DNA of 64,000 nt from Marsupella aquatica (taxonomy: Eukaryota; Plantae; Marchantiophyta). The stretch covers positions 21,504,513 to 21,568,512 of the forward strand of contig OZ316891.1 in NCBI GenBank assembly GCA_973895155.1. The letters are read 5' to 3'. The notes below the pieces were generated by a model. The model searched no databases and was not told the DNA's origin. It worked only from the letters and a program-made list of their open reading frames with translations. This document shows positions 427 through 24,256 of the stretch, in pieces (positions within the stretch are counted from its first letter, which is position 1; the number at the start of each line of letters is the position of its first letter). Made by a program: the position numbers and the translations under genes.

Positions 427-429
427 CAC

Positions 430-800
430 TAGAAGAATCCGAGGTGAACTGAGACCGCAATATATGACTCATTTTGGCTCATGTGACTTCATTGTGACTC
501 AACGTGACTTGACCCACGCTGTGACCCTTGGAGTTGCAAAAGTTGAGACCAAAAAATGGAAGTCACTATTGATACTGGGCTTTGCAACTTGCTTGATACC
601 CATTTGTGACTGATCTGTGACTTTATTGTGGAGTCTAGCCTTGTTTCGACGTGACTGCAATATGACTTCAGCGAGTCACATCGTAAGTCACATACATGAC
701 TTACCCGCATTCAACAACGACTAGCGTGTGACTATTTAGTGTCACAGGAGAGACCAATGGAGACCCTGGCCCGCGTCACACAACAGAACCATTTGGGACT
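430..800. repeat. CACTA subterminal repeat region (GTGACT/AGTCAC, GAGACC motifs)
   Basis: Dense short motifs in both orientations just inside the TIR, matched by a shorter array at ~18590-18650. Confidence 0.7.
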
Positions 801-1281
801 CTATATACTCATGTTTATAACTAATAAGGTTCACATGCAAGTTATAACCATGACTAATGAACACAGAGGGACAGTTCATAAGAAGAGAGAGCACTCGACA
901 TTACAATACATAGAAACCTGATGTTCTAACTTTAGAAATATAACACATTGAATACAAGAAATGAACATAGCATGAATGACATCCACATGAAACAAAGCAT
1001 CATATAAGCAGATCCTACATAAAACATTCATAAGAATTAAACACAATCACAATCTTGCTAAAAAATGAAGATCATTTGAATTCCAATGGAATAGTTTACA
1101 ATGTGATCAATGTAATTTAGACAAAACAGGAACTCATAATTGATGACTGTAGGATGAGATAACTGAAAGCACATGCATGATACTATGAATCTCCAAGAGG
1201 ACATGATTCTTGTACTGTTTCTTGACATCTAAAATCTACATAACATGACTCACACTACAAACAAATAATGGCATGACATTG

Positions 1282-4200
1282 TTATGGATCCTCTATGAAC
1301 TTGCTTGGCCATAATACCAAAGAACCTGCAGCATCTCCAAGTGTCTTTTGAGGAGGATCATCATTTGTGTTTGGAATGGGAAGGACAGCTTTAGGTTTCA
1401 CTAGTAATGTGACTAACACTACTGAATAACCTGGGGGAATCCTCTTGCCATGGAACGTTGTGGAACCAACCTGCACTCTGGCAAATCCTACTCGTGTTCC
1501 ACTCTCATCAACAGCTAACAAGCCACTTTGTCCCTCAGCATTAGGTGCTTTCCCCACTTCCACCTTAGATCTTTCTGCCAGCACTGTTCTTGGAGGTTTG
1601 TATGAAACCTTTGACGTGGCTCTGCTCCCACCAGCAGACTTGCTTCGTGTGCGCATGCTTCCTCTCTTCACAGTAGTGAAGCTAGGCTCAGTAGGTTCCT
1701 CTGTTAGGACTGTCACAGTAGCAGGTTCATCACCTGGGAGTGTCATACCAACTAACTCTTTGGTTGGATTTATCTCAACAAGAGGCACACCTGTCATTGA
1801 GAATGATACATTCTGCAAATCATTTATCTCTGCAATGGAGTCAAGATCTACATAGCATGAATCTGGCTCAATGGTATCATTGTCATGCTTGCTGATATCC
1901 TCATTTGCCCCAACATTGATATCATCCACTCCCTTGCCAATGTCATCCTCATCCAAACATGGTTGACTGCCCTCTGTCAAACAAGTTGCTTGTACAGACT
2001 GCAACTTTGTTGCCTCTAAATTACAGCGAGTATTTGCCAGGTTCTCATACTTCTTCTCTGTAGCACCTGTCTTATTCTCTATGGACACAACAACCACAAT
2101 ATATGTTACTGAAAATAACACATTCAACAAACAATGTCAATTCAAACTATACATTTAATAATCATATCCCACACAGTTGTAAAGGCCTTACCTTCAAGCC
2201 TACATGTCGTTGGCATGCCAGAAGAGTGCATCGACTTTGCCACCTCAAGTGGTGATGGTGGAACTCCTGCAGAATTGGAATCAATTTTATCTCTCACCGA
2301 CACAACAGCTTCCATTAATGTCTTGAAGTTCACATGGAACAAGTCAGTCAATGAATTCAAACGTTCATTGATCTCTGGAAGACATGTTTCGACAGCCTTC
2401 AAACGACCACTTATCTCTGTAAGTGAAGATCCACCTCCCTACATGACACAGGGGTATAGGTTCAATCACTCCATATGAAATGTTGGGCAATATATGCACA
2501 ATCAATGTTATATACAGTGTACACCTGAAATTCAACGCAGGTCATTCAATTACCAATCAGAACTCATATAACTTACATGCTTGGAGGATTCAGATGCACC
2601 CTCTTGAGCCCGGGTGTTCACAATTTCAGCCCTCAACTCTTCTTTTGAAGGGCTTTGCCCCAATTGGGCTTTCTGCACATGCATGGCAAACACAAGTTAT
2701 CGATCAATATTCAGGGAACGTACACTAAAAAACAAAGTTTACATGTAGGGACAGTACACTAAAAAATAGTACATAGTGTAGCATAAATTACATAGCTAGG
2801 CCATTCATTCTTACCAAACGTTTAGCTGTCGGTGCAGTGCCGGTCCTTCCTGTCAGATTAGGGTTCTGAACACTCAACCTGGCCTCGGTCATCTGTGAAC
2901 TCTTCTTTTTTGAAGCATCTGTTACAAAATAAGCTACTAACCTTGCCCACACTTTATCATCACAACTGGCTGGTGGAGGCATATCTGGCTTCTCCCCACC
3001 TTCCTTCCAAGCCTTATGCATTCTCCACCTCTCTTGCTTGATAATTTTACCTGCTGTACTCTCTAGGCAACCTATGTCCACGCCATCATCACTGCCCACA
3101 TAATTCCATTTGGCAGCAACATTTTCACATACAGTCTTCCAATCTTTTGGATGCTGTTTTTTAAAATTAATAACACTCACATCTAACCAACGCAATACTT
3201 CAGCTTTCAAATCAGCATGCCATCGGTTCTTGCGAGGACACTCAGCATCCACCCATTGTCTCTCATTCAACTTTACGTTCCCTTTCTTTGTCACCTCCCC
3301 TCGTGCACTGCTCTCGGTAGTACTGGGCGTTGTATTGGCCACCCCTTCATTCACCCTACCTGGGGTTCTGAAGCCACCTGGGAAAATACAATGCCATTCA
3401 TGCTTGAGAACTACATATAGCAGAATGGATGACGGCAACATTCAATGCTTCACTTCAAGAAAAATTCTTCAAACATACATACCTGTAGCTCTGCCTGTAG
3501 ATGCCTGTGCAGGGACTGCACTCTGAAATTGTTGCGACCCTGGACCACCTGTCCAGCCTAGTACAGGGGCCGGATGATGTCACTTTCTAGGTATGTGTGT
3601 GCAAACATATGTACTGAAAACTAAGTACAAACTGTAGGAAAACAACTGAACATTCACCGACATACCTGTCCCCCTTCCGTGCTGCATCTGCATAGGGGCA
3701 TTAGTGAATACTTGAGTCGATGGTTCGACTGTCCAACCTGCACACATACATTTTCTATCATTATACATGTGCAGAGTCCCCCCCACGTGAATGGACTCCA
3801 CATATAATGAGTTCTTCCATTGCTGACAAGATCAGACATTACCTGCTCCTCTTCCAGCGTTTGTAGGTACTGAATTTTGATATCCCTGCCAATTACCTTC
3901 ACCACCTTCCCAACCTTGTTCATTCCACGACCCACCACCATCCTCCCAACCTGGTTCAACCCATGTCTGTCCTTGTGGACATTGGAACTGATCATTACTA
4001 GCATTTGCCCAATCAGGTTGGGCAGAATCTGCATGCAATGGCAGGTGGACAGAATTTCATGTTGTCTGAATCCAATACATCCCAAACAATGTCAAAAATT
4101 GATATGCAGTCTGAAATTCAGGAGTGCCATGCCTTCACAAAGAACTGGCATATAGATATATACTCACATCCCCACGGTTGAGGTGGACGTCCATACCCAC

Positions 4201-4989
4201 GAGATTGTGGGTTTGGACCTGCTCTGCCTCTACCACGGGCATAACCTAGAGCTTGCCCCCTGCCATAGTATTGGGCACCAGCCTGGGATCTACCACTACT
4301 ACCACCTCGCCAACCTTGATCAGAGGTCAGCCCCCCCTGCTGGTATGGTGCATGCACAGGCTTCGAAGGCAAAACAGAACTGGCAGGACGCTGCATCACA
4401 TCACCAACTACAATGTCAGGAACTAAGCAAGGTACATATGTGTAGTACTGAACATATGAAACCTCTAAACAAGAGTTTTTAACTCAAAACCTTGTTGGGA
4501 AAACTACTTACATGTTTCTTTTGGGGCTGCTCTGCAATGTATTCATCTTCATAACCCCCATCCTCATCCATTTCCTCTGGAAAATACTCATCATCTGCAT
4601 CTTCTTGTCTAGTGTCTGCACCCACCTGTGCAGCATCAATGTCATCTCCACATTCTGCCATTGTAGGTACGACCTTCTTGCTCAACCTGTCACTCCGACG
4701 CACAGGCCCAGAGATAGTGCTGGTCACCCTTCTTGCGTACTCCTTTTGTTTCTTTGAAAATGCTGTGGCTCTGCGACATTCCAATATGAGAATACAGTCA
4801 CAATTTCAGTGCCACATTGAACTATTCATGTCACACAAACTCAGCGGAGGGGTGTAGTTGAGAATCGTTCCCTTACAATTCAGCCACATCCTTTTCCAGA
4901 TCCAGTTCTGCGATTTTGGCTTTCACGTATGCTCGTTGTTCCATAGCTTTCCTTTCATACTCACACATCTCTGTGTCACTCTGTTCCAT
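1282..4989 (-). CDS. CACTA second ORF (TnpA-like, multi-exon, ~10 exons)
   Basis: Chain of minus-strand ORF pieces bounded by GT..AG. 2788-3378 resembles the Ptta/En/Spm family (..VWARLVAYF..SKKKSSQMTEAR..TGRTG). The last exon ends in the typical HGKRIPPGYSVVLV..LPIP..TLGDAAGSLVLWP motif. Proposed ATG at 4989; exon boundaries approximate. Confidence 0.75.
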
Positions 4990-5145
4990 CCTACTGGACC
5001 ACAAAAACATGTCATCTATGGTCACCCCGTATAACACAATGCAACCACAATCACCAGGCATCCATCCATACATCTGTGTTGCTTCAGAATTACTTTATTA
5101 CACATCCTTCCCCTCACTAATGTCTATGCAAACAATTCACATTAC

Positions 5146-8100
5146 TCATGGCACAGGCACACTGTTGGCATCTGCATCTCTGAATTCGCCTCCTTCAGCA
5201 AATGCATCTACCCTTGTCACAGGAATGAAGTCCCCGCTATCATGAACTACAGGCACTTGGTCTGAACGCCGACGATCAAAGGCACTATGAGAGTGTAAAT
5301 GAAACTCAAGGTTTGATCCTTCCATCCGGCGTTGCCTGGCCTGTTTATGACACACTACACGCCAACCTGGGGAGTCTTCCACATCCAGGAAGAAAGCTTG
5401 CTCCACCTGACTAGGAAACACAAATGGCTCAGACCATTCGGGCAATTTCCCTCTGAAATTGGCCAGCAAGAAACCGTCGTTGTCTCTCTTCATGGTAGCC
5501 CTGTTACCAAGCCAATCCTGCCGCACCCATGAACCTTTCATAAGAATCACAGGACTGGACACCGCCCCATAGTCCAGAGCCCATATGTCAACTAATTCTC
5601 CCACATATCCCATCTCCATCCAGGCCCTGTCGTGATTGTGGCTCTGTTGCTCAAATACAGTGATGAGCCCGCAGTCATTCGTCACCCTGTAGGCACTGTC
5701 ACCATCCTTCACTCGGAAGTGATTCCCATATGCTCTCATCCGTTTGTAAGTCTTCACTTTCAGGCTAGGGGCATTAGACAGTAGGTAAACATCTGCATCC
5801 ATGTCTGGGTGGGTCTCGTGATGCTCTCTAATTGCCACTCTGATCCACTCCATGAAACCTGGAAAAGTTGTTCCTGCAGTGGGATGGGCCGCCTTCAATG
5901 ACTCATACTCCCTGAACGAACAACCACACAGCATTAGCTTGGGTAAACATGAACAGGCTGAAGGAGAAAACCACACGAACACAACATTTAAGCTCATGAA
6001 CTGGATTATAGCACATGTATGCACTCACTGTATCCAGGGTTCCATCACCACAGTGTTGTGCAATACAAAGTCATGTGCCAAGTCTCTCATAGATATGGTC
6101 AGGTTCTTTGTGGTTGCAGCCCCTTCCAGTACTTCACCTACCACCCCTTCCTCCTCATCAGAATTCCACACCCTGGTCTTCACATGCTCATATTGTGCTA
6201 TGTATTCGGTCAGAAATCCCAGAGTCTCATCCTTGATGTAACCTTTAGCCATGCTTGCTTCAGGTTTGTAATATGTTCTCACGTGACCTTTGAGTAGCTT
6301 CATGTACCGTTCCAAAGGGTACAACCAACGAGCACTCACAGGCCCAAATTGGTGTAGCTCTTCCACAACATGGACAAGTAGGTGGGTCATGACATCAAAA
6401 AATGCGGGAGGAAAATAAATCTCCAGGTCACACAGCACCTGAGCGACATCTTCTGTCAGTTGTGGGAAGTGTGTTTCATCCCAAACCTTCACACAAATAC
6501 GACGAAACACATCACTGAGTCGCATGATCACAGTACGAACAGGCTTCTGCAACAGGCCCCTCAGGCATAAAGGCAACACCTGTTGCATCAACATATGGTA
6601 GTCATGGCTTTTCATACTACCAAGCTTTCTAGTCATGATATGCTTCTTGAAAGCACTGCCATAGTTTGAAGGAACCTTCAAAGAACTCAACCTCTGCACA
6701 AATAGTTCCCACTCTGTGTCTGTCAGAACATAGGGCGCTTGGTACTTCAAGAGCACATCAGCTCTGTGGGCATGTGGCCTCAACCAAAGATGGGGTTTCA
6801 TTCCCCTCTGTTCAAGATCCAATCTCACTGAACCAGTGTCTTTCTCTCCACACAAGAATCTGAGTAGACTCTCACAAATATTCTTTTCAATGTGCATAAC
6901 ATCAATGTTATGTTTGCTTGGCTCAAACTCCTGCATCGTTGCAATGCAAAAGCGTCAGGAAATGCCTCAAGTTTAGTCTCTCTCTTCGAAATGAATGCAC
7001 ATGCTCTGAACCAAAACATGTATCCCAATTAGCATCAACTCCAAGAGGCTTACCCTCCAGTACTTGAGCTCCAAGTCCAATATGCTCAGTCTTTTTACAC
7101 CATATCGCTTTATTGGATCACTCACTCCATCTTCCCTGCCCCCTCGTTTGATATAGTCATCCCTCAGTGCTCCCCACTGCCTGATCTCCTCTTTGGTCAC
7201 TCGTGCCGGGGGTCCACGTTGCTCAATCTCATTGCCAAAGTGTGCAATCAGTGCCTGTCTTTCTCTGTAAGGGTGATCTGTCTTCAGAAAACGACGATGG
7301 CCCATGTATATCACTTTCTGCAGGGCTCTGGAGTACTCACTGGTGACATTGCGCCCACAGATAGTACAAGCACAATATCCTTTTGTTGTTTGGCCTGATA
7401 TCATCCCATGGGCTGGGTAGTCAGCTATAGTCAGAATGACAATGGCTCTAAGGATGAATGGGTTTAACCTCCCAAGCCTCTGTAGGACATCATATGTGAG
7501 AACTCCTTCCTCCCAAAGCTTTCTCAATTCCTCCACTAGGGGAGCCAGAAACACATCTATGTTGGCAGATACAGCACTGTCTGGCCCTGGTATCAGTAGG
7601 ACCATCAGAACAAAAAATCGCTTTGTAGTCATCCAAGGAGGAAGGTTATAATTCAAAATAGTTACAGGCCAGCATGAAAATTTGTTGTTCTTGTCTCCAA
7701 ATGGGTTTACCCCATCCAATGACAGCCCAAGTCTGACATTCCTCGGCTCAGCAGCAAATTCGGGATACATCTCATCTATGAGTTTCCATTGCCTTGAATC
7801 TGCAGCATGTCGTTGTAGCCCATCATCACTTTTCTTGTCAGTTGCCCAAGTCATCATCTCCGAGATGGCACGGCTTCTGAACATCCGCTGAAGTCTGGGA
7901 ATGAGTGGAAAATGACGAAGTACCTTGGCGGGAACCATAGACTTTCCTGAGTTCCGATACCTGTGCTTCCCACACTTAGGGCATGTCAACGATTCTTTAT
8001 ACTCCTTTCTGAAAAGAACATGCCCATCAGGACAGGCATGGATCGAATCATAGTTCAATCCAAGATTAGATATGCATCTTTTTGCCTCGTACATGTTCTT

Positions 8101-8877
8101 GGGCAAAATATTACCATCTGGTAGCACAGTTGTTCGCAAGAATGCCAACAACTCAGAAACCAAAACGTTGGGGACATTGTGGTTGCCGCAAATGTTCAGG
8201 AACATGATGACAAATCCCAGTTTAGAACATTTGCTACCGGGGTACAAAGACTTCCTGCCTTCCTGTATTTGCAAGGGAGAGCCAAACATCCCATCATGCC
8301 CAGGGGTTTCCTGCCCTATCTCAAACTCATCAAGAGGCTCTTCGACAGGGGGCACACTTGCATCTGCAGCCGTATCCTCTTCATTGTCCAGCCCATCATG
8401 AAATGCATCCAAGTCTTGGAAGATGTCTCTCACCATCTCTTCCACATGAATTCCTTCGTCACGTGGTGCTGCCTGAGCACCATCCCGTTGGAGAGCTGAC
8501 AACCCACAGAGACCAGCTACAACATTTTCAAATGCACCAGGCAGAACCTCACTTGCCCGTCTTGCAGCATTGGCAGCATCAAATTCTAACCTCCACTCCT
8601 CGTCGGAAGAATCTTCCTCTGCAGGATCATTCCAAACTCGATGTCGTGGATCTCTTCCATGAACCGCGATATGCCGCCAAACCTCATTCAGACCCCTGGT
8701 ACGGGATCCTTGGCAGATTGCACAAGGACATCTCATCCTACTGGCTCCTGAAAGTCTGGTTCGTAACCTTTCACGCTGCCAAAGCTTATTATCATGGCGT
8801 GATATCCTTGTGGGATGATGCAAAGGCAGTGCCTGTGCCCTGGGCTGGGTCTGGGGAGGGTGGTGACCAGGGTGCAT
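5146..8877 (-). CDS. En/Spm (CACTA) transposase, TnpD/TNP2-like; 3 exons 8877-7054, 6930-6029, 5911-5146 (~1163 aa)
   Basis: N-terminal CPC..C transposase-associated motif. Transposase_21 motifs IHACPDGH, LRHFPLIPRLQRMF, RLGLSLDGVNPF, YNLPPW, DYPAHG. HNIDVMHIEKN, KSHDYH, FPPAFFDVMTHL, WLYPLERYMKLLK (DUF4218-like) and EPFVFPSQVEQAFF (DUF4216-like). Both GT-AG introns join in frame (1824+902+766 nt). Confidence 0.93.
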
Positions 8878-9310
8878 TGTAACAGGCTGGGAGCTCTGCA
8901 GTCATGGACAGCAGTGAACAAGGATGCCTAATGGTGGTATTTGTGTTCCATATATCCCTGACTGTATCTGCCAAAAGAGTTAACATAACGTGTACTAAAT
9001 TCTCACAAACCCTAAACCACCCCAAAAGAAAAAAACAGGTTCGCAAGTAGTGTACCTATTGTCAAGTGAATGACACAAAATTTCTAAATGTTGGAGGGTG
9101 TCACCACCTCCTCCGCTGTCCTCAAATGTACCGCCTCTGCATGTACGTTTACAGTGACACCCCCAGGCAGCAGGAAACAACAATCCGCCAACAGTAAAAT
9201 AAGCCCAACTGCCACCAACCATAACAAGGTACATTAGTTCAAAGATCACATTTATTTCAATGATCTGATTTATACAAAAAAACTTGTGTCCAAACTGATG
9301 CTACTACTCC

Positions 9311-10183
9311 TCACTCTGATTCAGAATCGCTAATGACCCATTCCTCACTTGTTGTCTCATAGTCCTCTCTGTAAGGATCCTGACCCTTCCGTGGCCAGGC
9401 CTCAAAAAGATCATAGTCCATTGGGTTTTGACGCTTCCCAGCTGCTACTGATTCCACAAGCCAAGCATATGAAACCACAAACACATTATGGGACATGACA
9501 TAAAAGCGAATGTCTCCCTTCCCAAACTTGCGGCAGGCTTTGGGATATGACTTAGTAATGACATGAGTGGTGTCCTCTGTTATATTCTCCTCCACTGTCC
9601 CACCTAGGTCAAGCACTGTGGACTTGTACACTTTGCACTTAACCTCTCCAATTCCCGCCTCCACAAATACCATGCTCAGCCCTTTCAGAATGGGGGTTGG
9701 TTGCTTCGTCTCCTCAGCCAACATACTCTTCAGCCTTGTAGAGCTCTGTCCTTTGTTGAGTACAGGTCCATATTGGAGATCAGCAAGCCGTGCCTTTGCT
9801 TCCCAGACTTCTTGTTCAGCCCAAGCTGATGCAGTAGCTTCTTCATCCTCCCACAACTCATATTGCTCAGTATCCTGTACAATCTTATGTGCTATGGAAT
9901 CTGTGATCCAAGAGGCCTCAACTACTTTTAGGCCTTGCTTAGTAATTGCAGAATTCATGTAGGACCATGACCACTTCTTTATCACTGATAGCCATGTCCC
10001 TGCAACAACATGTGTAGTCTCTGGAGTGATGTCCTGAACTACAGTGCCATGGAGCTCAGAGAATCGTTTCTGTACAGTTGGCCAATGCACTTTGGTCAAC
10101 CCATGCTGGCCATGGACCAAAATCGCTCTGACCCCTGTAAACACTGCTGGGTGGTCACACTTTCTACGTTTACCAGGCTCCAT
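9311..10183 (-). CDS. Intronless tandem-BRCT protein (~290 aa) encoded inside the CACTA
   Basis: Two BRCT-like repeats, each with G-x-V..THVV/I and a W(I/L)xxS helix. Basic NLS-like PGKRRK at the N-terminus and an acidic tail. ATG at 10183. Confidence 0.8.
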   Translation of the reverse strand: MEPGKRRKCDHPAVFTGVRAILVHGQHGLTKVHWPTVQKRFSELHGTVVQDITPETTHVVAGTWLSVIKKWSWSYMNSAITKQGLKVVEASWITDSIAHKIVQDTEQYELWEDEEATASAWAEQEVWEAKARLADLQYGPVLNKGQSSTRLKSMLAEETKQPTPILKGLSMVFVEAGIGEVKCKVYKSTVLDLGGTVEENITEDTTHVITKSYPKACRKFGKGDIRFYVMSHNVFVVSYAWLVESVAAGKRQNPMDYDLFEAWPRKGQDPYREDYETTSEEWVISDSESE

Positions 10184-10775
10184 GTACACACACCCTACGT
10201 GATGACAGTGAATTTTGGAAGAATGGGTTCACCTGACAATACAAGGACAACAAAATTCCTGCTTTTTGAGTTGATCTGGCCCACTGGTGCTCAGGTCCGA
10301 TTTTGATAGGTACAAGGGATATGTGAACAATACGTACTAGGCACCTGCACGGATGCAGGACATTGTTTGAATATATACTACAAAATCCATATCCGTGGTG
10401 AAATGAAGTGCAACCAACTTGTCATGGCACATACATATTTTGTTGTAAAGGAGGATACATTCAATGACAAACTTATAGGGCAATTTGATTAATTGCATGC
10501 CTGATAATTTATACGCTTACAACTTAGAAGTCCTGTTTTAATTTAGCAGTGTGATGAAAGTGTTTATGAAAATGACCACTCAGCCTAAATACTTCCAAGA
10601 AGGCTTGTAAGGATAAGTTTGTATAGGCATGTACCCAGCCACTGACGCCAGAGCACAAGATAAGTGCTGCCTATATAAACTCGCCTACCCAACTCCTTTT
10701 CAAAATTGGAATCTCTGCAATCTCAAAAAATAGTACATCCACATCAGGTGCACTGTGCATGTACAATGTTCAGCT

Positions 10776-11456
10776 TCACAGCCAAGATATGTGATCTCTC
10801 ACAGGAGTGCGCGAGGTAGGATCAATGGCATGGCGATGACAATAAAATATCCATCGATCAACACCATGTGCAGAGTGATCATAGATTTCTCTGTCACAAG
10901 CATAACCCTCTGCTTGATGATCTTTCAGGCAATGATAGTGCCACATAGTGGGACACCTAGCACAGTGGACTATGTCAGTCCAGTAGTCATCATCATGCTC
11001 ACCACATGCCTTGCACCTATGAAGTGGGCAAGCTGTGGCATGAGCAGGCAAACACTCAAAACAGAAAAATCTCACACAAAAACGGTCTGGACATTTCCTA
11101 ACATTTGCTGCAGCATCAACAGAGCCCTCATAGGACCCCAACTTCCCACACTGTGCACACTTAGCCTGCTTCTCCAAACAATCAGTGCACATCCAGTCTC
11201 CCTGGTGTGTTGACGGGAGGCCCACCCCTGGACAGTTGTTTTCTGCAGCAAGGTCAGACTCCGGGTTGAGGTGGAAATGCCTCATGCAAGGGCCCTCACA
11301 AATGACCAGGCCCCCACCATCGTCACAAATGGCACAACAATGAGCTGCCTTCTGGAAAATCTGACTTGCAGAGAAGTTAGTAGCATCTGCCCCAAGTACA
11401 CCTGTGTTTCTCACCTCTGTCACACGCTTTTTGGCTTGAATTTTAGGCCGTGCCAT
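10776..11456 (-). CDS. Intronless stand-alone EDM2/NSD-type PHD finger protein (226 aa) encoded inside the CACTA
   Basis: CAICDDGGGLVICEGPCMRHFH, CAQCGKLGS, CPLHRCKAC, CARCPTMWHYHCL and terminal IFYCHRHAID..TPVRDHI follow in order the PHD region of plant EDM2 (recalled: CAICDNGG..CEG.C.RSFH, CPLHKC, CRRCP..YH..CL, IYC..H.ID...TPVRDH). Confidence 0.85.
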   Translation of the reverse strand: MARPKIQAKKRVTEVRNTGVLGADATNFSASQIFQKAAHCCAICDDGGGLVICEGPCMRHFHLNPESDLAAENNCPGVGLPSTHQGDWMCTDCLEKQAKCAQCGKLGSYEGSVDAAANVRKCPDRFCVRFFCFECLPAHATACPLHRCKACGEHDDDYWTDIVHCARCPTMWHYHCLKDHQAEGYACDREIYDHSAHGVDRWIFYCHRHAIDPTSRTPVRDHISWL

Positions 11457-11467
11457 GCCTGCGCATG

Positions 11468-11611
11468 AGATAGACTCTACAATTTAGCAGACTGCACAGA
11501 AAGTAATATATATTTAGCATTTAAGGTACAAAGGCATTTAGATAGACTCTACAATTTAGCAGACTGCACAGAAAGTAAAATATATTTAGCATTTAAGGTA
11601 CAAAGGCATTT
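11468..11611. repeat. 72-bp tandem duplication immediately upstream of the PHD ORF
   Basis: agatagactctacaatttagcagactgcacagaaagtaa..ggcattt occurs twice, near-identical. Confidence 0.9.
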
Positions 11612-12226
11612 GCTACTGCAATGAATTGGAATGGCCACACAAGGATGCAGAGCACACATACTTTTGGTATGTTGAGCCCACACACAAAACTGATCCCCTA
11701 ATACAATTTCTCCACCAACACCTCAATTTTAATTGTGGCTATGATTCACCAAAGGAGATCTGCAACAACATTTCATGCATTTGAATCACATACAATAGTC
11801 GTGACATGTAAAACAGGCATTCTTCGAAGAGGATTGGTATGAAGCAGTGTCATAAGGGTTGAAATTTATACATCCTAAATAGGTTATGATAGTGGCTGAG
11901 ACAAATAAGTGAGGCATAAATCATTTTGCATATTATCACATGGCCCATTAATTCATTCAACGTTGCAATGTTCACCAGGTTAAAGCAGTCATGAAAGCAG
12001 TCTTTCAATAGAGACTTTTATGCGAGTTTGCTAGCCTCTTAAATTAGGATATTTTGCTTAGTGCAGGCATAATAGGATATAAGTTATATACTGTTGACCC
12101 TAAACCCTGGACCCAAAATTGCTCATACATCAAAATTTTAAGTAAATATCCTCTGTGTTGAAGTCAGAGTGTTAAGCTATAGGTCAATGGTATCTGGTCT
12201 GTGCATGCGGTGTGACAAGTGGTCCT

Positions 12227-12676
12227 CTAGAGCATGTGATCCAAACATGTGTAGACACCAAAGTCACCGGTGGTGGGGTCTGGGAGGGCAGGACAAGTGA
12301 CATCACCAGGCACACTGCAGGATGGCGAGTGGTTCCAAATGATACATTGTGCTCTATGCAAAAATCGGCATCCAAGAGAACGGTCATCCAATTCTGGGCC
12401 AGAAGCCCTACAGGCAGGACAGTCATATTGGCAACTGTGTACACACCCTTGGCACCTAATTTGTGGCGGGTCATGTACAAGAGACACAAATACCAAGGAT
12501 GTCGGGAAGGGTACTGAAGCAAGTAGAGGCCGGCTGTAGTTGTTCCTGGAAACAACAGGGTACTCAAAGTACCATGCAGACTGGGCTGGAAGGATCCCAA
12601 GTCTGACATACTCAAGGCGCAACATCTCTGCCTTGCGTGCAAGTCGCACATGTTCAGCGTTGCGGGTCCTCACCAT
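12227..12676 (-). CDS. Cys/His-rich hypothetical protein (149 aa), possible zinc-binding
   Basis: Uninterrupted ATG-initiated ORF co-oriented with the other CACTA genes. Contains CxxC, CPAC and further C/H residues; no family recognised. Confidence 0.5.
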   Translation of the reverse strand: MVRTRNAEHVRLARKAEMLRLEYVRLGILPAQSAWYFEYPVVSRNNYSRPLLASVPFPTSLVFVSLVHDPPQIRCQGCVHSCQYDCPACRASGPELDDRSLGCRFLHRAQCIIWNHSPSCSVPGDVTCPALPDPTTGDFGVYTCLDHML

Positions 12677-13671
12677 AAGTGTTGCTTTTGTTGTGATGTC
12701 CTCTGTTCACGTCCTTTGATGAGCAAGGTGAGCAGGAGGTCGACTTGCCTCGCCAACAGCAACCACCTAAACTAATCAGTTCCCACTCAACTACAGGTCA
12801 TAGTATACACATAGCATGAAACGTGCATAGTACATATTTGATTCTGAGTTTATGAGTTTCCTAAGACAAAGAGCTTGGTGATAAACCCATATTCTCGATG
12901 GACATGTATATCAATCGTATTAAAATCCTGTTTTTTCATCCAGAAAGACCGAAAGTCTCACCTTGCAGGTTGCAGCAGAGAGAAAATTCACTGGTTGTCG
13001 TGTTGTGCAAGTGAACCTCCACTGATGCCCCCGGTGTAGCCCCTCAGATGCAGGTGACACTTACCAACTCCCAAGTTGCCTGGTCTAACAGAAAATGCTT
13101 ATATCTTCAGAACTTTATAGAGCAAGTACATGATCACATACTTCTGGATCTATTCATATTTGGAACTCTTGCCAACTACAACTCCCATTATGCACAAGCT
13201 CACATCAACAGAGAAAAATACAGAATGCATACTTACTATGGCTCTAAGCACCTTCACTACCTTGTTGAACCCAGTCCTGAAGTCTTTTCAGCGTGTTTGT
13301 TGTGCTGTCTCCTTTGGCACCCAACACCTTAGTCCTTGATGTAACAGAATGCGATTTTACAAGTTAGATGCTTTGGAACCTTCTATGGTCTTAGCTGAAT
13401 TGATGTCATCGTAAGTGGTGAAAGACAAGGAAGACGAAAGCTGGTTGAAGAGCTGTGGACAACACACTAGCATGAAGTGCTTCAACCAATCCACTGCCAA
13501 ACGGAACTCTTACACAGTCACATTCTTTCAGTAAACAGAAACTCAATCAAACTTCATAATCAAAGTACAGACTCTGAAGGACCAAAGGAGGATGTTGTGA
13601 GTTTCTCTGTTGTTTAATGTGTTACCCTTCTAGTTTCGAAGTTAGCAAATGCTGAATAATGTGTCTACCAG

Positions 13672-14011
13672 ATCTTCGAAAAGAAGCCCACCACAATTAA
13701 GAACTTTGGTATCTGGGTGAGGTATCAGAGTTGTACAGGTTATCCCAACATGTACAAGAAATATTGTGATACCACATTAAACAACCACACAGCAGATGTA
13801 TGATGAGATGGCTTCTTGTCATAGAGTTCGGTTCCCTTGCATCCAGATCATCAAGACTACGACAGTCCCTGTCTCTCTGTGCAAGCGAGAAAGTACCAAG
13901 CAGTTCCATGATTCAAAGATCAAGTTCCCCTTGACGTACCGCAAGATTCAACCTCCATCGCGAAAGCTAAAGACGACTTACAAGGCCACCAAGCCCAACA
14001 CATTTGTTTGA
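13672..14011 (+). pseudogene. RPL18A: Captured last exon of 60S ribosomal protein L18a (eL20), frameshifted
   Basis: Translates [32 protein letters not shown] / [54 protein letters not shown]. Frameshift near 13785; preceded by the intron acceptor ctaccag. Confidence 0.92.
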
Positions 14012-15850
14012 GTAGTGCGGGTGTAGGTTCCCAATTTTGAAACAATTTGGCTCATTTTATGTCCCGAGGGACTCCAGGAGTTTATGTATTGAGTTTCTAG
14101 GTCAAGATGCTTAATATAAGGAAATTCAATTATCACCTCGTTCCCAACTTCTATTAATTGAATATACACAAGCTGGAAGCAAGAAGACAAGCCACAATCT
14201 AGCATCTTAGCCAAACACAATCGTCCCGACAAAGCAAAACTCAGCTGGACAGAAGTCACTCGGATCCACAAAAAATTGAAGATTCACCTCCAAGCCGGAG
14301 GCCGATCACTTCAGTACAGCAGCTTCTGGACGGAACAAACTCTGCTCAGCCCCACAAAAACACAAATGTTAAGGCTCCAAGTCAGAGCTCACAAACAGAA
14401 ACTCAGATAAATAACATTCAAAATCTGTCCAGGTTTGTGCAAAGTGTACATATTCATTCTTCTGGAATGAACACGCAATGCATACATCGCCTAGACACAG
14501 TCATTATAAATCATTGGGCAATTGGGGACCACTAAGCAGGTGTGTTCCTATTTCGAGGCTACAAGAAAGGATAGAGTGACACCAAACTGAAGAGTACACC
14601 AAAAGAAAAACAGCAAGAACCAAAGTCAATCATGTGTGGATATTTTGCACATGGGAAGTTCCCCTGAAGAAGCACCAGTTGCTAACATTGTCACCCGAAC
14701 CACACCCAGTTTATTACCTCAATGTCTTCAGCCTCAATATCCAATCCTCAGCCCCCTGGTGCTTCCGTGTTTGTTCTGAAAATTTCTGTGATGAAATAAT
14801 TATTCAATACATTCAATAGCAAAGAGAACTCAATCACAAAAGAAAAATAGTTAGTGTGAATGCTAATTTCTCAACACTTAACTAAATTCAAACCACCAAT
14901 TCAAGTAGTAAGTTTCAAAAACTTGCCTTTACATGAAGAGAAACCAATTGGCCATGCATGTTACTAAAGCAATAAACAAATAATTAGGCTCAACCCCGGG
15001 CTCAACACACAGGCAAACTACTCGAAACATGCTGCTGAGAAGTAACATTTTTTGAATGTCAGACTATGTGTAAGTGCCATGATCGTGCTCCTACGTTTCA
15101 CAAGGAGGGCTGGCCCGAAAGGGAGAAGCAACAATGTGGAGTCTATACACGTAGCACAAATCCCAGTTTAGAAGGGTGGATGAAGTTCAGACAAGAGTTC
15201 AGAACTTGCCATTTGAGATTGCCAATCTGAACTTCACATTCAGACAGGACTTCATCCAGTTCAGGAGTTCAGATAGGAGTTCAGACAATCTGAAGAGGAC
15301 TTTGGACTTGAATGAGGGACAGCGTGGCCATATAGTTATCCTTGTGGCCTTCAGCTGCGTGTCTCAGGCTGAATTTCACTTTCCAGTTTCGAGAGTTCTG
15401 AAGGTCTAGTTTTAGTAACTTCCTCCTGACTCGACTTGGGAGCATTCTCCCTATTTGCTAGCTTGTAGTTAGCTTTGACTCCTGTGAGCTTAGTTGACGA
15501 CCCTCTTGAGATATTAACAATTAGAACAAACACAAGTTGTCAAGACAGATTCCACCGGAGCAAAAAGTCCAAAATCAGGTGAAAGAAAACCTAAGGAAAG
15601 TCCATAAGAACGAAAGTAGGAAGGCAGGTGCACGGGCCACCGAGAAAAGTAAAGGATGCATGTGATTAGTGGGGAGGGATCTTAGCAAAAATAGGGGAAA
15701 GCAAGGGAACTTGCTGCTAAAATCAGCTGAACGATTGCACGGTTCCTATAAATTTAGTGGACCTTAAGGCCGTCTGTTCAGCCCCCCACCCCATTGCCAG
15801 AGCACGGGGCACAAGGCATGTTCTGATACAGGGAGGAGCAAAACAGTCAT

Positions 15851-16900
15851 GTCAAGCAAGAAATGTGGAGAGACCAATCAGTAAGCAAAAATAGGGGAGA
15901 ACATACATACATGATCAGCAGCAGCAGGAAACAAGAAAGATGATTTTGGGTGGCATCTTAGGGTCGGGGACACCACTGCAACACCGGGACTTAGGATATG
16001 AGTTGTTCTTAATCTGCTAGTAGCATCCGGCAGGCCGGCGACCCATGGCAAAAGGGCAGAGCAACAATCCGCTAAAACTACCGAGTCTCACCTTTGCGCT
16101 ACTGACTGTCACCTTTGTCCAAGGTAGCTAGTAATAGCAAGTTGAAGTCCCGCTCCAAGTTGTCGGCTTCCACTCCAAGCTCCCTAAAAGATTGTGGCCT
16201 CAGGTCCAAGTCGTTAGCTCGCACGCGCAACTCCCTAAACCTACACACAGCGGAAGCTTAGCTCACCAACAACTTGCAGAAACAATGACCTCCCCTCTGA
16301 AACTGATAAAAACACCTGAATACAAATAGTGAAGCACGAGGACAGAACAGGGAGAAGCGTTTTGCAGTTTGGGACGACAATGCTAGGAGTGTATACACTT
16401 CGGGCAACAGGGAGGTCCAATAATAGTTTGAATCTGACGGATGAAGCTCTAGGCGAATGAGCTCCAGGAGATTGGGTGCATGATTGAGTAGGCAATTGTA
16501 ACAGCAGGCACCTGGCGATTGAAGGAAGCAGCATTCGGCAATGGACCTAGGCAGCTCGCGAATTTTGCTCAGCAGCGATGTCACCTAGACCCTAAACACG
16601 CAATGCATACATCACCTAGACAACTATACTTGCAGCCACGAGGTGAGTCCGCGATAGGGGATTGAAGGAAGCAGCAAGTCAAGCAAGAAGCGTGGAGAGA
16701 CCAATCAGTAAGCAAAAATAGGGGAGAATAGACATACATCAGCAGCAGCAGGAAACAAGAAAGATGATACTCTGTTCCATCTTAGAGTCGGGGACACTAC
16801 TGCAACACCGGGACTTAGGATATGACTTGTTTTTAAACTGGAGATAGCATCCAGCAGGCCGGCGACCCATGCCAAAAGGGCAGAGCAGCAATCCGCCATG
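15851..16900. repeat. ~220-bp dispersed direct repeat (15851-16072 and 16678-16897)
   Basis: gtcaagcaagaa..ggagagaccaatcagtaagcaaaaatagggg..caacaccgggacttaggatatga..ggcagagca.caatccgc occurs twice with moderate divergence. Confidence 0.9.
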
Positions 16901-19404
16901 TAGCGATAGGCGAGAGCAGCGATTACGACGATGAAAGATGGTCAAAGCTGAAGCAAAACCCCTAAAGATGCAGCTTGGCCATACTCTCTTTCCTCACCTC
17001 ATAGCGCTAGGCATTCAACCTCCCTCTTCAATGAACCTCACAACAGCTTGAAGGTCGATAGATTTTACCTCGTCTCCTGAGCAGAAACGTCTGCATTAGC
17101 TGAACAGAGCCCGGAACAGAGCTATCGCATTTAGCCTCCCGACTCCAAAATTGAACGCAACACAACCTCCAACTCCCAATGGCAGCTCAGTAGGTTGATC
17201 AGCTCGGTCAATGCAGGTCAGTCGACCTCAATAGCCACACTAGAAGCTCACCGCAAGTCACTCAAAGGTCAGACTAGAAGCTCCGCCGCCTTCACACCGT
17301 AGCAAAAAACAATGAGACCAATATCGAGCAAGGCGACCCTGTTTGAATATTTGGCGACCATCAGGCTCCACCCCTCCTTTCTCGCTACCGTTCCCCCATG
17401 TGATGGTTAAGCTTCTGAGGACACAATCAATCGCACAAATGTAGCTTAAAGCAGGACCTCACTAAGCAGACTATCGGTTAGGACCTTATAGACATAGAGA
17501 TAGATAGGTCAATGCAACCTTACTTGGGCCGATGCAGCATGTCTCTTCACAATGTGAAGCAGCGCAGCATTCCTCCACCTAGCTCGCAGTGATCCTCCGC
17601 CTTGCTTGCAGTAACCAGCCTCCGCCTAGCTAGTTTGCACTGTCACGGCTGCAACTTTTTGTGCAATGACTTGGCCCTCCTACCAACTACGAGCTCCCAA
17701 AAGTATGTCGAGCAGATGTACACTCAGGCACCACCTCGTAGAGCTCAACTCCAAGTCGGCAGCTCTCACTTGAAACTCAATAGCAGCTTAGCTCACCAGC
17801 AGGTTGAAAAGCGACAATGGACTCCCCTCAAAACTGATTGGCAGACCTCCACACTGACGCTCGTAGCAGGCCCAATCCTAAACACATTTGCACCCTAAAG
17901 TCCAGTCGCGCTCAAACACTTTCAAACGACCCTGCAGGAAGTTCGCGAAGAGTGCAGCTGGAATGAAGGTCGTCGACTCCCAATTTCCCTCGCAAAACCA
18001 ACCTCTGCGGCACACTGACCCTGAACACTTAGGGCAAGTAGTACCCCCAAAATCTCTCGCAAAACCAACCTCCAAGGTACACTGACCCTGAGGGAAAGTA
18101 GTACCCCTCACATGTGGGCAGCCATCGAGTGACTTAGCAAACAGGTTGGTTTGGACATAAAAGAACCAATGCAAATGACTTAGCAAAAAGTTCAATGTGG
18201 GGAGAGTGCACTTTGGTCAAGAACAAGGCCAAATATAGTCAGGTATGAATCCACATTATAAGTGAAAGTACCCACCATTCTGATGAAAACCCCCATATTT
18301 ATACCCATTATATTTGGACTTATTGAACCATGAGTGTGCAATATGTAGTTGCACCGGGAGTTGCATATTAGGGATTGGCATCCGAAATTGGCTAATGGGG
18401 TATGCATGCTGACGGAATTTTAAAAAATGATGTCCAATTCATATTGCACTATTGTGGAGTAACTAACATAACTTACCTATTTCTTACTTACTAGTGTTAC
18501 AATAGCGACATTGGATAAAGTTGTAAGCATGACTTCCCACAACCTCACCAAAACTTAGTTGGTATGATGTAACTAACATGACACCCACAAACTTGGAGTC
18601 GCATATTTATGAAGGTCTCGCACAAGTCACATAGGGGAGGGTCTCAGAATGGGTGGTTTTCTTCTAGTGCATGCAGCTCTCACCATAGCTTTCCAGCCTC
18701 GTGAGCTACCTTCAATCTCCATAGCTCAGTAGCACGAAGCTGCTCTACCCGGTCACCAGCCAGCTCTCCACTTTCAAGCTTTTGATTTTGCTGCAACTAC
18801 TTCAGGCAGCCACGAGTTTCAGGGTAGCAACATCAATCTCAAGGATCGATCAACAACTAATGTAGTGAGCTCTCTCCATAGCCTATCAATAGCAAGCTCT
18901 AAGCAACAAGTTCTAATTGAATAGAAGCCAATTGTGCAACAATACTCCTTCCATCAGCATTGCTCCATCTTCCATAGCACAATGCTCTCCCTGCAACGGA
19001 GCTCTAATTGAATAACAGCTCTCCTTATGCAGCAACACTACTCCCGACAACTGTAAGCTCTCAGCAACAAGCTTGAAGCAACACCACATTTTTGATTTAT
19101 CAGTAGCAAGCTTCTCTCTCTAGACTCACAACACGAATCTTTTTTAGCCCAATATTTCCTCTCAAACGGCAACACCAATCTTCGCCCTTCATTACGGACC
19201 CGGGCTATAGTAGCAAGCTTTCATAGCAGTAGCAAGTGTCCAATGCGCGTAGACCGAGCTTCAGACCCAAGTTTGTTTAAAACGATGTAGCAGAGTTTGA
19301 GCAACGCAACATGTCTCTCTTTACAAATAACAACAATTATTCTCAACCAACATCGAACTCAATAGCAATAGCGGTTTAACTCAACAGCACAAAATTGAAA
19401 TGCC

Positions 19405-19747: not shown

Positions 19748-22700
19748 ATCTCCTCCTTGACTGTGGTCTAGGGGAGGGTAATACTGCTAGCCTATATGAT
19801 TCCTCAGTGGGAAGTTGCGGACAAAAACCAACATGGTTTCCCCTCTCTAACTAGAGCAAACCAAAACTAAGCCGTAGCCTATTACTAGGAGTGAAGAAGA
19901 GCATATATCAGTAATTACAGCGAATGTTAAGAAAAAACATTTACTTGTGACGCAATTGCAAAACCTACAGCACGTCATGATGTCTAGAGAAATTTTCCGA
20001 AGGAATCACTTTGTTAAATGCGTCAGCTGGGTTGAGTTTACCGTCTATCTTGACTAGCTCAAACAAATTATCAAACACAGCCTGCCTGATAAAATGATAC
20101 CTGACGTGTATGTGCTTTGCTCTACTATCCATCACCTGGTTCACAGCAAGGTGGAGCGCACTTTGACTATCACAATGAAGCTTCACATTCCCTTATGGCA
20201 ATCCCATTTCAATGATAAATCTATCCAACCAAATTGCTTCCTTCGCTGCTTCCGCTGCTGCAACATACTCTGCTTCTATAGTAGACTGAGCAATACACTT
20301 CTGCATAGTAGACCTCCAACTTATGCATCCACTGCCAAGTGTGAACACGTACCCTGTTATTGATCTCCTTTGGTCTAGATCTTGTCTATGATAGTCAAAA
20401 TCTACATAGCCAATCAATGATCTCGCATTCTTTGCATTTGCATCAAATAAAAGACCATGATCCACGGTATCCTTCAAGTACCTGATAATCCACTTCACTA
20501 CTTCCCAGTGTACCTTCCCTGGATTTGACATGTACCTACTCACCTTGCCCATAGCCATGGCAAGATCAGGTCTAGTGCAAGTCATCAAATACATGAGACT
20601 TCCTACTGCCTTCTCATAAGGAACCTTTGACATCAGCCCCTACTCTGTCGCATCTGTAGGACAAAAAGCTTATGACAGTTTGAAGTGTACAGCCAAAGGG
20701 TACTTACTGGCTTACTATCCCCCATGTTGAACCTAGCAATTACCTTCCTCGCATAACTGCTCTGTGTCAATCATAGCTTACCAGTCTCCAAGTCTCTAGT
20801 GATCTCCATACCCAAAATCCTCTTAGCTGGCCCTAGCTCCTTTATCTTAAACTTTGCACTGAGCAGTACCTTAAGCTTAACAATCTCAGACCTATTCTTG
20901 GCCGCATCAAGCATGTCATCCACATAAAGTACTAAAACAATGAACCCAAAGACAACATTCTTCACCGGTTTCAAATATACACAAGGGTCAAACACACTCC
21001 TGTGAAAACCTTGTGACCGAATCCAATCGTCAAACTGCTTGTTCCACTGTCTTGGTGACTGCTTCAACCCATACAAGGATTTCAGCAATCTACAAACCAG
21101 TTCCTCCTGTCCTCTCTTCACAAAACCTAGCGGTTGTCTCATGAAGATCACCTCTTTCAAGGTGCCATAGAGGAAAGCTATGACAACATCCATCTGATCT
21201 AGAAGCAGATCAAATATTACAACAAGCACACACAATAGCCGTATTGTTGAGTACTTAGCAACTGGTGTAAAGACCTCATTGTAATCCACACCTTTTTCCT
21301 GTGTGAATCCCTTGGCTACCAACCTAGCCTTGTAGACCTTTGATCCACCTCTCGTAGACTGATTCTTCAGCTTCTATATCCACTTACTGTCCACCACTTG
21401 CTGACCCTTAGGCAACTTAACAAGCTCCCAAGTTTTGTTGTCCTTCAGTGACTGCATCTCCATTTGCATTGTTGTAGTCCACTTCTGCTTCTCCTTTGAA
21501 GCACTTACCTCATGAAATGAAGAAGGTTCCCCTTCTTCCAAATTTAACGCATCATCCTCATCATCAGCTGCAAAATTGTCCTCTTGTAGTTGAGATGAAT
21601 CAACCCACTGTCCATACCTAGGAGGAGCGCGTACAATGCGACCATATGTTCTTCTAGCCGATGACTCCGGTTGAATTGCATCTACTAGTACAATTTGAAG
21701 CTCAACAACATCCACTTGCTGCTCACCAGCATTAACAAACTCCTCTTGTTCCTCTGGCACAGGAACTAGCTCCATGCTTGAAGCACATCCTTCTCTCCGA
21801 TCATGCACTTCATGATCAATCTCCCCCTCAATGAGATCTGGGATAGGAGATTTCCCTTTGTCAGTATGAAAGACCTGAATATTCTCCCCCTCCTTCAATA
21901 ATTTGGATTCATTGAAGGAAACATCCCTATTGACAACAAGCTTATAGGCAATAGGATCCCATAGCATGTAGGCCTTCACACCACTCTGATACCCAAGAAA
22001 AATACATTTCTTGGATGTAGGATCCAACTTGGTCCTATTCTGCTTTGGTGTGAGAACATATGCATCACTTCCAAAAACTACCAAGCCATGATAGTCTGCT
22101 TGCCGCTTATAACGCATTTCAAATGACGTTTTGAAATTGATTGCACTAGAAGGAGAAAAATTTACCAAATAAGCTGCAATATTGACAGCTTCTACCCAAA
22201 AATTTTGTGCTAAACCTGATTGGCTCAGCATACTCCGTGACCGCTCCCATAGTGTTTGATTGAGCCTCTCAGTGACACCATTCTGCTGCGGAGTATAAAC
22301 TGTGATGAGCTGGTGAGTTATCCCCTGTTCTGCACAATACTCTTCAAATTCTATTGAAGTATACTCCCCGTCGTTGTCTGACCTCAGACCCTTCACCCTG
22401 GTATCCAAACACTTAATCGTGTTTCCTGTCTGATTCTCCACTTGGGCCTTCTACTTTGTAAAAATGGACAAGACATCGGACTTATGCATCATGAAACAAA
22501 TCCAGACAAATCTCAAGTAATCATCAATGAAGGATACATAGTCCAATTTTCCAAAATGTGAGGGAGTTGGGGATGGTCCTCACACGTCACTATGTATGTA
22601 CTCAAGAACCGCTTTGGAACAATGAGTTCCAACACCAAAAGCACGATGATGCTGCTTTCAAAAAATGCAATGCTCACAAAAATCCAATTTACAAGACTGC

Positions 22701-24256
22701 AAATAAAAAATGAGCCAATTCTTCTATAAGATAGCCAAACCCTTCTCACTCATGTGGCCTAGCCGTGAATGCCACAATTGTCATTTCCTCGTGAGACTTG
22801 GTTACATTGGCCTCTCCGCATACTATATTGCCCTGCAGCACATACAAATTCTTCTATCTGCTCCCCTTTAAAATCACTGTCTCTCCCGACATGACTTGAA
22901 GTTCACCATCAATTAATTGCCATTGATGACCATTTGTATCCAGCACATCGAGTGAAATAAAATTCTTACGCATGCCAAATACAAACCTGACTCCAAACAC
23001 TGTAATGCCATCAACATTTGAATCTTTACAGACCCAATACCCTCAACTCGACAGGAGTGATCATTTCCCATCAAAATTGAACCGTTTGACACAGAATAAT
23101 AATTGAAATACTCATGAATGTAATAAATGTGAAAGGAGAAAACATAATCAAGAATTCACACATCGTTTGCTCTCCTAGATGATGTGCACAGGGCATACTC
23201 CTAGCTTCATAAAACATACTCATCATTGAGTAAATCAACTTCTTCATCAGCACTAGCCACATTGGCTGATGAAGATTCAGTTGCCTTACCCTTACAATCC
23301 GTCTTAACGTGACCAACCTTGTGACACTTCCAGCAGACTACTAGCTTTCTCTCTTGGGACTTCCCCCTTGAAGCAAATCTTGTCCTAGATTTACTTCATC
23401 CCTTGCCATTTGTGCGTTGCTCGGGATGCCGTTGTGACCTCCCATGATTCACATTCAAGGTAGCACCAGACGACGATGCTGTCTAGGCTTGACCCAGTTT
23501 CTTCTGTGCATTATCTGATAGCAAAGAGCTTACCACCTCATCGTATGAAATAGACTTCAGGTCTCTATACAAGAGAACCTGCTTCAAATCCTGATAAGAT
23601 GGGGGTAATGAGCTGAGAAGAACCAAGGCCTTGTCTTCTTCTTCAACGCCCTTATCGAGATTAGACAATCAACAACTAGGATGTCGAATTCATCCAAGTG
23701 ATCCTGAAGCTTGTTCCCTTCTTTGAGCCTAAGGCTCATCAAGAGAGACTTCTTGTACAATCGGTCTGATGCATCCTCCCGATAGTACTTCTCCCTTAAG
23801 ACTTTGAATAGAGATGCATAATCCGCGTAGTCATCCAACTTCTTGATGATACGCGGCTTCAGATAAAGCATCACCGCATTCACTACAATCACTTGTTTTT
23901 GCCTCCACCTTTTTAGTGGAATCTGCTCCTTATTATCGTACATCTCGCACGCAGAGAGAAGATGATCTAGGCCCATAGCACAAAGAACTCCTTTCACTTG
24001 CTTCTCCTAGAGCAAGTAGTCCGTACGCCCATCATACTTTTCCACCTCAAATTTGACACCTCCAAACCTGGATGCCATCTTTTTTTCCTTCACAACCCCC
24101 TCTACTTGCTGCACCGGTGATTGTACCGGTGTCACGTGCGCTTCCTCTTGCTCCTCTCTCTCCTTTTCAAACCGTCGTTGTGATCCTCGTACTTCAAGAT
24201 CCACTTCACTAGTATATTTTTGTAGTTTTTCCGATGCTCCGGTCGCGGCCTAAAAG

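Follow-up and report, generated by a model that had tools for sequence, protein, structure and literature searches.

A predicted stand-alone EDM2-type PHD protein encoded within a CACTA transposon of the liverwort Marsupella aquatica

Introduction

Arabidopsis EDM2, a protein of 1297 residues, and the EDM2 proteins of other land plants carry three atypical PHD fingers with a long His-Cys spacing in PHD1 and a TPVRDH tail. The accessible parts of three studies describe a specificity of EDM2 for H3K9me2 (PMC7529245, PMC7472560, PMC3632883). Captured host domains that act as transposon genes, and accessory anti-silencing proteins, are both already known. According to the available text of the respective reports, Kaonashi is a Ulp1 protease gene that was captured by non-TIR MULEs and kept as a regular coding gene (PMC13317346), and VANC of VANDAL elements and TnpA of Spm are accessory transposon proteins that counter silencing in trans (bioRxiv 10.64898/2026.08.24.746577, PMC10398659).

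Our search of the transposon and CACTA literature, whose scope took in few subscription papers, found no report of a PHD- or EDM2-bearing CACTA element. A term search of the accessible text of PMC13621724, PMC10241880, PMC13547354, PMC11982613, and the Spm preprint (bioRxiv 10.64898/2026.08.24.746577) also returned none; the part of that preprint available mentions unnamed accessory domains in a survey of 962 Spm proteins. A search for EDM2 together with Marchantia and transposons returned nothing beyond one review. As far as these searches reach, the combination described here, an apparent EDM2-type PHD module in a CACTA element, is unreported.

We analysed 64,000 nucleotides of M. aquatica DNA (hereafter the window) containing a short open reading frame, the PHD ORF. 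Like Kaonashi, it appears to be a host nuclear-regulatory domain serving as a coding gene of a DNA transposon family, but the superfamily differs, and its predicted product is a non-catalytic chromatin-type module rather than an enzyme. Like VANC and TnpA, the PHD protein is transposon-encoded and may have an anti-silencing role; unlike these sequence-specific DNA binders, of which TnpA is transposase-derived, it is apparently host-derived and built of PHD fingers.

Results and discussion

The CACTA element and its genes

The element is 18.2 kb long and is bounded by 11-bp inverted termini (CACTAGAAGAA) at positions 427-437 and 18659-18669. Its features are as follows (strand given where one applies):

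427..800, CACTA terminus downstream of the genes: inverted terminus at 427-437 and subterminal GTGACT/GAGACC repeats (10 and 4 copies)
1282..2136, minus strand: open frame of 284 codons without a Pfam match
2788..3441, minus strand: TnpA-like exon (Transposase_24, E 1.5e-4, below cut-off)
about 5146..8901, minus strand: TnpD-type transposase in three open frames (Transpos_assoc, Transposase_21, DUF4218, DUF4216)
9311..10183, minus strand: tandem-BRCT ORF, 290 aa, intact and intronless (BRCT, E 2.6e-13, 2 stretches)
10776..11456, minus strand: PHD ORF, 226 aa, intronless (ATG at 11456, TGA at 10778-10776)
11459..11460, minus strand: candidate 3' splice acceptor AG, 2 bases ahead of the PHD ORF ATG
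11468..11611: 72-bp tandem duplication immediately upstream of the PHD ORF
12227..12676, minus strand: Cys-rich ORF, 149 aa, basic start, third accessory gene candidate
13670..14011 (start approximate), plus strand: ribosomal protein L18a fragment, frameshifted and intronless, within the element's variable 5' region
18659..18669, CACTA terminus upstream of the genes: matching inverted terminus

The subterminal motifs are common to both ends and sparse toward 18669. Two GT-AG introns (7053-6931 and 6028-5912), whose phases match, link the three TnpD frames, and the transposase domains score strongly (Transposase_21, E 2e-70; DUF4218, E 5e-28). The frame at 1282..2136 probably belongs to the TnpA-like gene as a later exon. 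The genes thus read, all on the minus strand, in the order 149-aa Cys-rich protein, PHD protein, tandem-BRCT protein, TnpD, and TnpA-like exon. The initial annotation had described the PHD ORF as transposon-encoded, which its position between the CACTA termini and its shared strand with TnpD and the TnpA-like exon confirm. The tandem-BRCT ORF, lying between the PHD gene and tnpD, is likely a second captured nuclear module and a candidate accessory gene; the 149-aa Cys-rich ORF had no Pfam, NCBIfam, or Atlas match. The L18a fragment is decayed cargo, and the element therefore does take up cargo.

The triplets flanking the two termini differ (TGA before 427, CAT after 18669), that is to say, this copy has no target-site duplication and may be recombinant or rearranged. 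Across the 5' part of the element (13400-18669), contig depth was several-fold below that of the coding part and many deletion joints were present; a 225-bp direct repeat also lies there (15848-16072 and 16675-16896). This part is likely variable or nested sequence, which may account for the lack of a target-site duplication.

Four public runs, drawn from 3 studies and 3 coded organisms, supplied contigs (699 to 14061 per run) over 30 of 30 bins. None of the 12 rows listed in a sequencing-run search was an RNA data set, which bears on expression in neither direction. In run X1, a contig that lies immediately downstream of the ORF, its end 54 bases from the stop, had a depth of 1641, compared with 1554-1782 for the TnpD contigs. 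Such depths are in keeping with a repeated family to which the PHD region belongs, although contig depth does not measure copy number and none of the contigs reaches from one gene to the other. Because contig depth cannot rank the parts of the element, the depth peaks over the PHD ORF and over the ORF at 12.2-12.7 kb were left out of the evidence. The 12227-12676 bin had the top summed contig depth within 9.7-19 kb in 3 of the 4 runs. One listed joint deletes the start of the PHD ORF in some copy. Variation within the ORF is too thin for use: S215L was the one in-ORF variant among the best 40 of 1046 variant rows, and no in-ORF indel occurred among the best 12 of 95 rows.

The observed/expected CpG ratio is 0.25 in the PHD ORF, 0.37 in TnpD, and 0.31 in the adjoining copia remnant, compared with 0.70-1.10 in four nearby genes; the depletion of the PHD ORF fits long residence in methylated DNA. 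That remnant is a broken copia-type retrotransposon (20193-24006, minus strand; RVT_2, integrase, SH3) beside the CACTA terminus.

Three PHD fingers of EDM2 type

The PHD ORF product begins with MARPKIQAKKR, ends exactly with TPVRDHISWL, and contains 22 Cys and 16 His; its length, basic start, and end are all as first annotated. When the 2 kb around it were shuffled 1000 times, no ATG ORF of this length arose, the longest being 165 aa. The reported absence of introns also held, with one uninterrupted frame from the ATG at 11456 to the stop at 10776. The AG at 11459..11460 may be the acceptor of a 5'-UTR intron; two relatives show E-G-M and V-G-M at the start site, which is compatible with the same AG. 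The product is divided as follows:

Residues 1-16: basic N-terminus (6 Lys/Arg)
Leader before PHD1: conserved F/W-x3-E/Q-x2-Q-x3-H
C41-C93: PHD1
C100-H146: PHD2, with Cys132 in place of His
C148-H209: PHD3, followed by the TPVRDH tail

The full Cys/His scaffold claimed in the initial annotation is complete in number (24 of 24 ligand positions) but altered in kind, with Cys132 standing where host EDM2 has His. A Pfam scan found PHD models and nothing else, in agreement with the claim that the remaining EDM2 domains are missing: the RFD, the acidic regions, and the methyltransferase-like (ELP) domain are all absent from the ORF.

Residues 41-225 align with residues 225-432 of Arabidopsis EDM2 (EDM2_ARATH) over 211 columns (30% identity, E 2e-27), and the two proteins have the same TPVRDH sequence; identity to any host protein compared was 30%-32%. 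A profile search of 1.84 billion representatives yielded 564 matches at E <= 0.001. Among the best 150 of these, the five highest-ranking ones were short proteins like the PHD protein itself; most of those below them were long, and the long matches that we checked were EDM2-family proteins of liverworts, mosses, lycophytes, one fern, and seed plants.

Comparison with the PHD1-PHD3 array of NSD1/2/3 revealed that (i) the same Pfam models (PHD-1st_NSD, PHD_NSD, PHDvar_NSD) occur in the same order, each below the cut-off in the PHD ORF; (ii) the profile matches NSD2/NSD3 PHD1-3 (E 3e-11 to NSD2); (iii) the spacing from His to Cys in PHD1 is 12 residues in the PHD ORF and 8-13 in land-plant hosts, unlike the spacing of 2 (His-x2-Cys) in 6 of 6 NSD-like rows; (iv) the TPxxDH tail is present in 14 of 16 rows of the short family and in 25 of 26 from land plants, and absent from all 14 algal or NSD-like rows, including the 6 NSD-like ones; and (v) the PWWP and SET domains of the NSD methyltransferases are absent from the PHD ORF, as is their canonical PHD1 spacing. 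The initial assignment to EDM2, rather than to a generic PHD or NSD protein, thus agrees with the similarity, the PHD1 spacing, and the tail. By motifs and scores, the PHD ORF is a three-finger PHD module of the EDM2 family.

An AlphaFold2 model built with a 12-row alignment had a mean pLDDT of 72; that built with a 6-row alignment (pLDDT 48.8) was not used for the fold search. The best Foldseek matches of the former were PZP and NSD PHD-C5HCH histone readers (6 at E <= 0.001). With VIA-align, the best match was NSD2 PHDvC5HCH (Z 4.7, rmsd 2.8, 75 aligned), a weak match, with no Z >= 5.

A conserved family of short relatives

Relatives of the short protein numbered 5 of 123 candidates and then 15 of 841, of which 14 were short. 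All short relatives come from raw-read or metagenome assemblies and carry no NCBI or UniRef gene name. Their pairwise identity ranges from 28% to 91%, with a median of 42% (152 pairs among 18 near-complete rows). Many begin with MAR(P/K), 33-46 residues ahead of the first Cys. All 24 zinc-ligand positions are kept in 13 of the 18 rows, whereas 3 rows lose 1 or 2 and 2 rows are truncated; the loss of ligands across copies that the initial annotation had set as refuting was not seen. In 14 of the 16 rows that have the tail, the stop lies at most 4 residues after it. Between the PHD ORF and an intronless relative in the metagenomic locus L001, identity at the three codon positions is 0.59/0.60/0.32 over 194 codons, and 48 of the 84 identical residues use a different codon. 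The retention of ligands and stop, together with the strongest divergence at third codon positions, indicates purifying selection on a stand-alone protein, so that, as far as the coding sequences tell, the family is not fresh cargo.

These data also bear on whether the PHD ORF could be neutral Pack-CACTA cargo, or could be kept only as camouflage at the DNA or siRNA level, in either case without a functional protein. The accessible text of PMC13317346 describes decay as usual for captured genes and camouflage as proposed, and many relatives are broken: ten more short matches were truncated or off-frame, a pattern of decayed repeat copies (these were excluded from alignment A4 and the family counts), and together with the joint that removes the ORF start they imply that many copies are dead. 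However, third codon positions are far more diverged than the first and second, the ligands and the stop position are kept down to about 30% identity, the 30%-32% identity to hosts is too distant for siRNA cross-talk, and the true neutral cargo of this element, the L18a fragment, is frameshifted. The codon and ligand data largely refute this explanation, which we regard as highly improbable.

A search for the genomic context of the relatives gave 321 pattern matches but 0 confirmed ones in viral contigs, 0 matches in prokaryote genomes, and one locus in metagenomes, L001, which is 1.9 kb long and cut at its 5' end.

Probable descent from the EDM2 family

In the first tree (55 rows), the 16 short proteins form one clade with support of 97/92, the bootstrap being not fully settled; P0006 and P0141, which have incomplete modules, and 8 rows without an extracted module were left out. 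The clade was recovered again at 100/100 under a mixture model (40 rows), from 11 of the 16 short rows plus 29 rows of hosts or outgroups, P0156 being left out. The best trees nest the short clade inside the streptophyte EDM2 family, but a grouping with NSD-like rows was not rejected (p-AU 0.29). A chlorophyte origin, suggested by a Cys shared in PHD2, was rejected, as grouping with two chlorophyte rows had a p-AU of 0.009. P0156 (JGI, 226 aa), another stand-alone EDM2-type PHD protein, has a host-type PHD2 and falls outside the short clade; it may represent an independent capture.

EDM2 paralog groups without the methyltransferase-like marker occur in liverworts and in mosses (P0015, P0018, P0020, P0026, P0031, P0061; P0047, P0069, P0109). 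For 13 of the 16 short proteins, the best-scoring hosts are liverwort paralogs of this kind, and sister pairing with them received weak tree support, 94/86 (one long branch included) and 65/20 (mixture model). Comparison with the paralogs of Calypogeia (CAM6087769), Marchantia (Mp1g03210 and Mp4g03050), and Riccia (KAL3685775) revealed that (i) several of them, like the short proteins, end shortly past the tail; (ii) the two groups have R-H/Y-F-H in common, whereas canonical EDM2 has RSFH (17/17); (iii) they also share a W-x-H motif ahead of the final ligand pair (5 of 6 cases), which occurs in 0 of 17 canonical EDM2 proteins; and (iv) unlike the short proteins, the paralogs have 280-768 residues, mostly with long N-terminal parts, and a PHD2 that keeps the His and a long linker. 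On these grounds, the donor was likely, though not provably, a liverwort-type EDM2 paralog. Because these paralogs already lack the methyltransferase-like domain, its loss need not date to the capture.

A further explanation holds that the short family does not belong to CACTA elements in particular, its members being host retrogenes or genes of another mobile element, one of which the CACTA element took up secondarily. This would accord with L001, a single locus in whose 1.9 kb nothing but the ORF matches this element, with the cargo uptake attested by the L18a fragment, and with the presence, in grasses and Marchantia, of short EDM2-like host proteins (280-390 aa) centred on PHD fingers. The existence of the latter means that a PHD-centred build is not unique to the transposon gene. 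However, those short named host proteins that were placed in the trees fall outside the short clade, the short-clade matches have no gene names and many are decayed, as expected of repeats and not of host genes, and the PHD ORF is as CpG-depleted as TnpD. We consider this explanation decidedly improbable.

A remodelled module

The short proteins differ from EDM2 in two regions that may bear on histone reading. First, all 18 short rows have Cys as the fifth PHD2 ligand, which is His in land-plant hosts, and PHD2 is shorter by about 20 residues across the short family, a deletion relative to the hosts. Second, the sequence before PHD1 is basic, not acidic as in EDM2: within the 14 residues before PHD1, the PHD ORF has 0 acidic residues compared with 9 in Arabidopsis EDM2, and acidic residues number 0-3 in 26 of 26 short rows, 6-9 in canonical EDM2 (9 of 9 rows), and 2-5 in the liverwort paralogs. 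At position -2 before PHD1, 22 of the 26 short rows have His, whereas AIRE has Asp there. An acidic residue at that position binds unmodified H3K4 in AIRE-type fingers. Some plant PHD domains bind no H3 at all, according to the accessible text of PMC9640981.

With PHD2 remodelled and the acidic stretch gone, the H3K9me2 reading of EDM2 cannot be carried over to the module. The term "heterochromatin reader" used in the initial annotation is thus not supported so far, and the remodelled module may read a mark different from that of EDM2.

Possible roles of the PHD protein

The reading we prefer, at a probability of about 0.45 and drawn from sequence comparison, is that the PHD ORF is a conserved accessory gene whose product would be a chromatin-docking helper: it would bring the element's own machinery for anti-silencing or transposition to chromatin, to the benefit of silenced copies. 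The gene would have been captured long ago from a methyltransferase-less liverwort-type host paralog, and its intronless state suggests an RNA intermediate or later streamlining. It could be expressed through alternative splicing or from its own promoter. The basic N-terminus would drive nuclear import, the module would bind nucleosomes or a chromatin partner, and the protein would act in trans with TnpA/TnpD, so that methylated copies could be transcribed or excised. A broader version, which we put forward as doubtful, is that this bryophyte CACTA lineage assembled a three-gene anti-silencing toolkit based on chromatin recognition, composed of the rewired reader module of a host read-through factor, the captured tandem BRCT protein, and the Cys-rich protein.

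The accessory gene might instead work through the host EDM2 pathway, either as a decoy for host EDM2-family proteins or as a mimic that recruits the ASI1-AIPP1 read-through machinery. EDM2 acts on transposon chromatin and, with ASI1 and AIPP1, promotes distal polyadenylation, as the available text of two studies reports (PMC7529245, PMC7472560); the genes of the element cover more than 11 kb of CpG-depleted DNA on one strand, and the TPxxDH tail kept in the short family could be a partner-binding surface. Against such a role, the ORF has no RFD, acidic, or methyltransferase-like regions, our literature search found no published assignment of the AIPP1-binding region of EDM2, and the remodelled PHD2 and lost acidic stretch fit divergence rather than mimicry. 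This role is therefore unlikely in our estimation.

Insertion guidance, in which the module would hold the TnpD transpososome at target sites in a given chromatin state, appears quite unlikely. Chromodomains tether some retrotransposon integrases to chromatin in this way, the predicted fold resembles histone-reader arrays, the PHD ORF is encoded beside TnpD on the same strand, and the co-encoded tandem BRCT would suit a repair or target-capture step. However, the PHD ORF is separate from TnpD, with its own conserved stop, and no fused form was present among 3 matches of 3101 longer candidates, a count that is weak evidence. Fusion of the PHD module to BRCT was considered as well as fusion to TnpD, and, at the level of genomic sequence, the conserved stop speaks against both.

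If the preferred reading, a docking helper for the element's own machinery, is correct, chromatin recognition would be a second route of counter-silencing besides the DNA-sequence binding of TnpA and VANC, and its module would stem from a family with which the host controls transcription through transposon heterochromatin. At 226 aa, the protein would represent a natural minimal EDM2 module and a handle on the fold and on the residues for mark specificity; since no EDM2 structure was found among the solved structures searched, it would be convenient for solving the fold. The PHD protein may also serve as a tool for reactivating or targeting transposons in model bryophytes.

Other features of the window

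PPR and other genes in the window mark it as land-plant DNA, and the nearest host paralogs together with the PPR style suggest a bryophyte, possibly a liverwort. Two intronless MFS transporter genes (42753-43922, plus strand, and 58846-60429, minus strand) form an inverted pair that is 86% alike, with a GC content of about 0.57 and no CpG depletion. NCBIfam gave only sub-threshold matches of anion:cation symporter type; we take the pair to resemble fungal allantoate-permease-type carriers, and it is a candidate for horizontal transfer. Degenerate arrays of 17-37 bp repeats at 11-393 and 62864-63351 are mutually inverted and are possibly the subterminal arrays of another element. A repeat of 0.7-1.2 kb occurs in three related copies (24966-26179, 28966-29694, and 32255-33300), one of them inverted, which contain tandem units of 79-98 bp; it is probably LTR-like or MITE-like.
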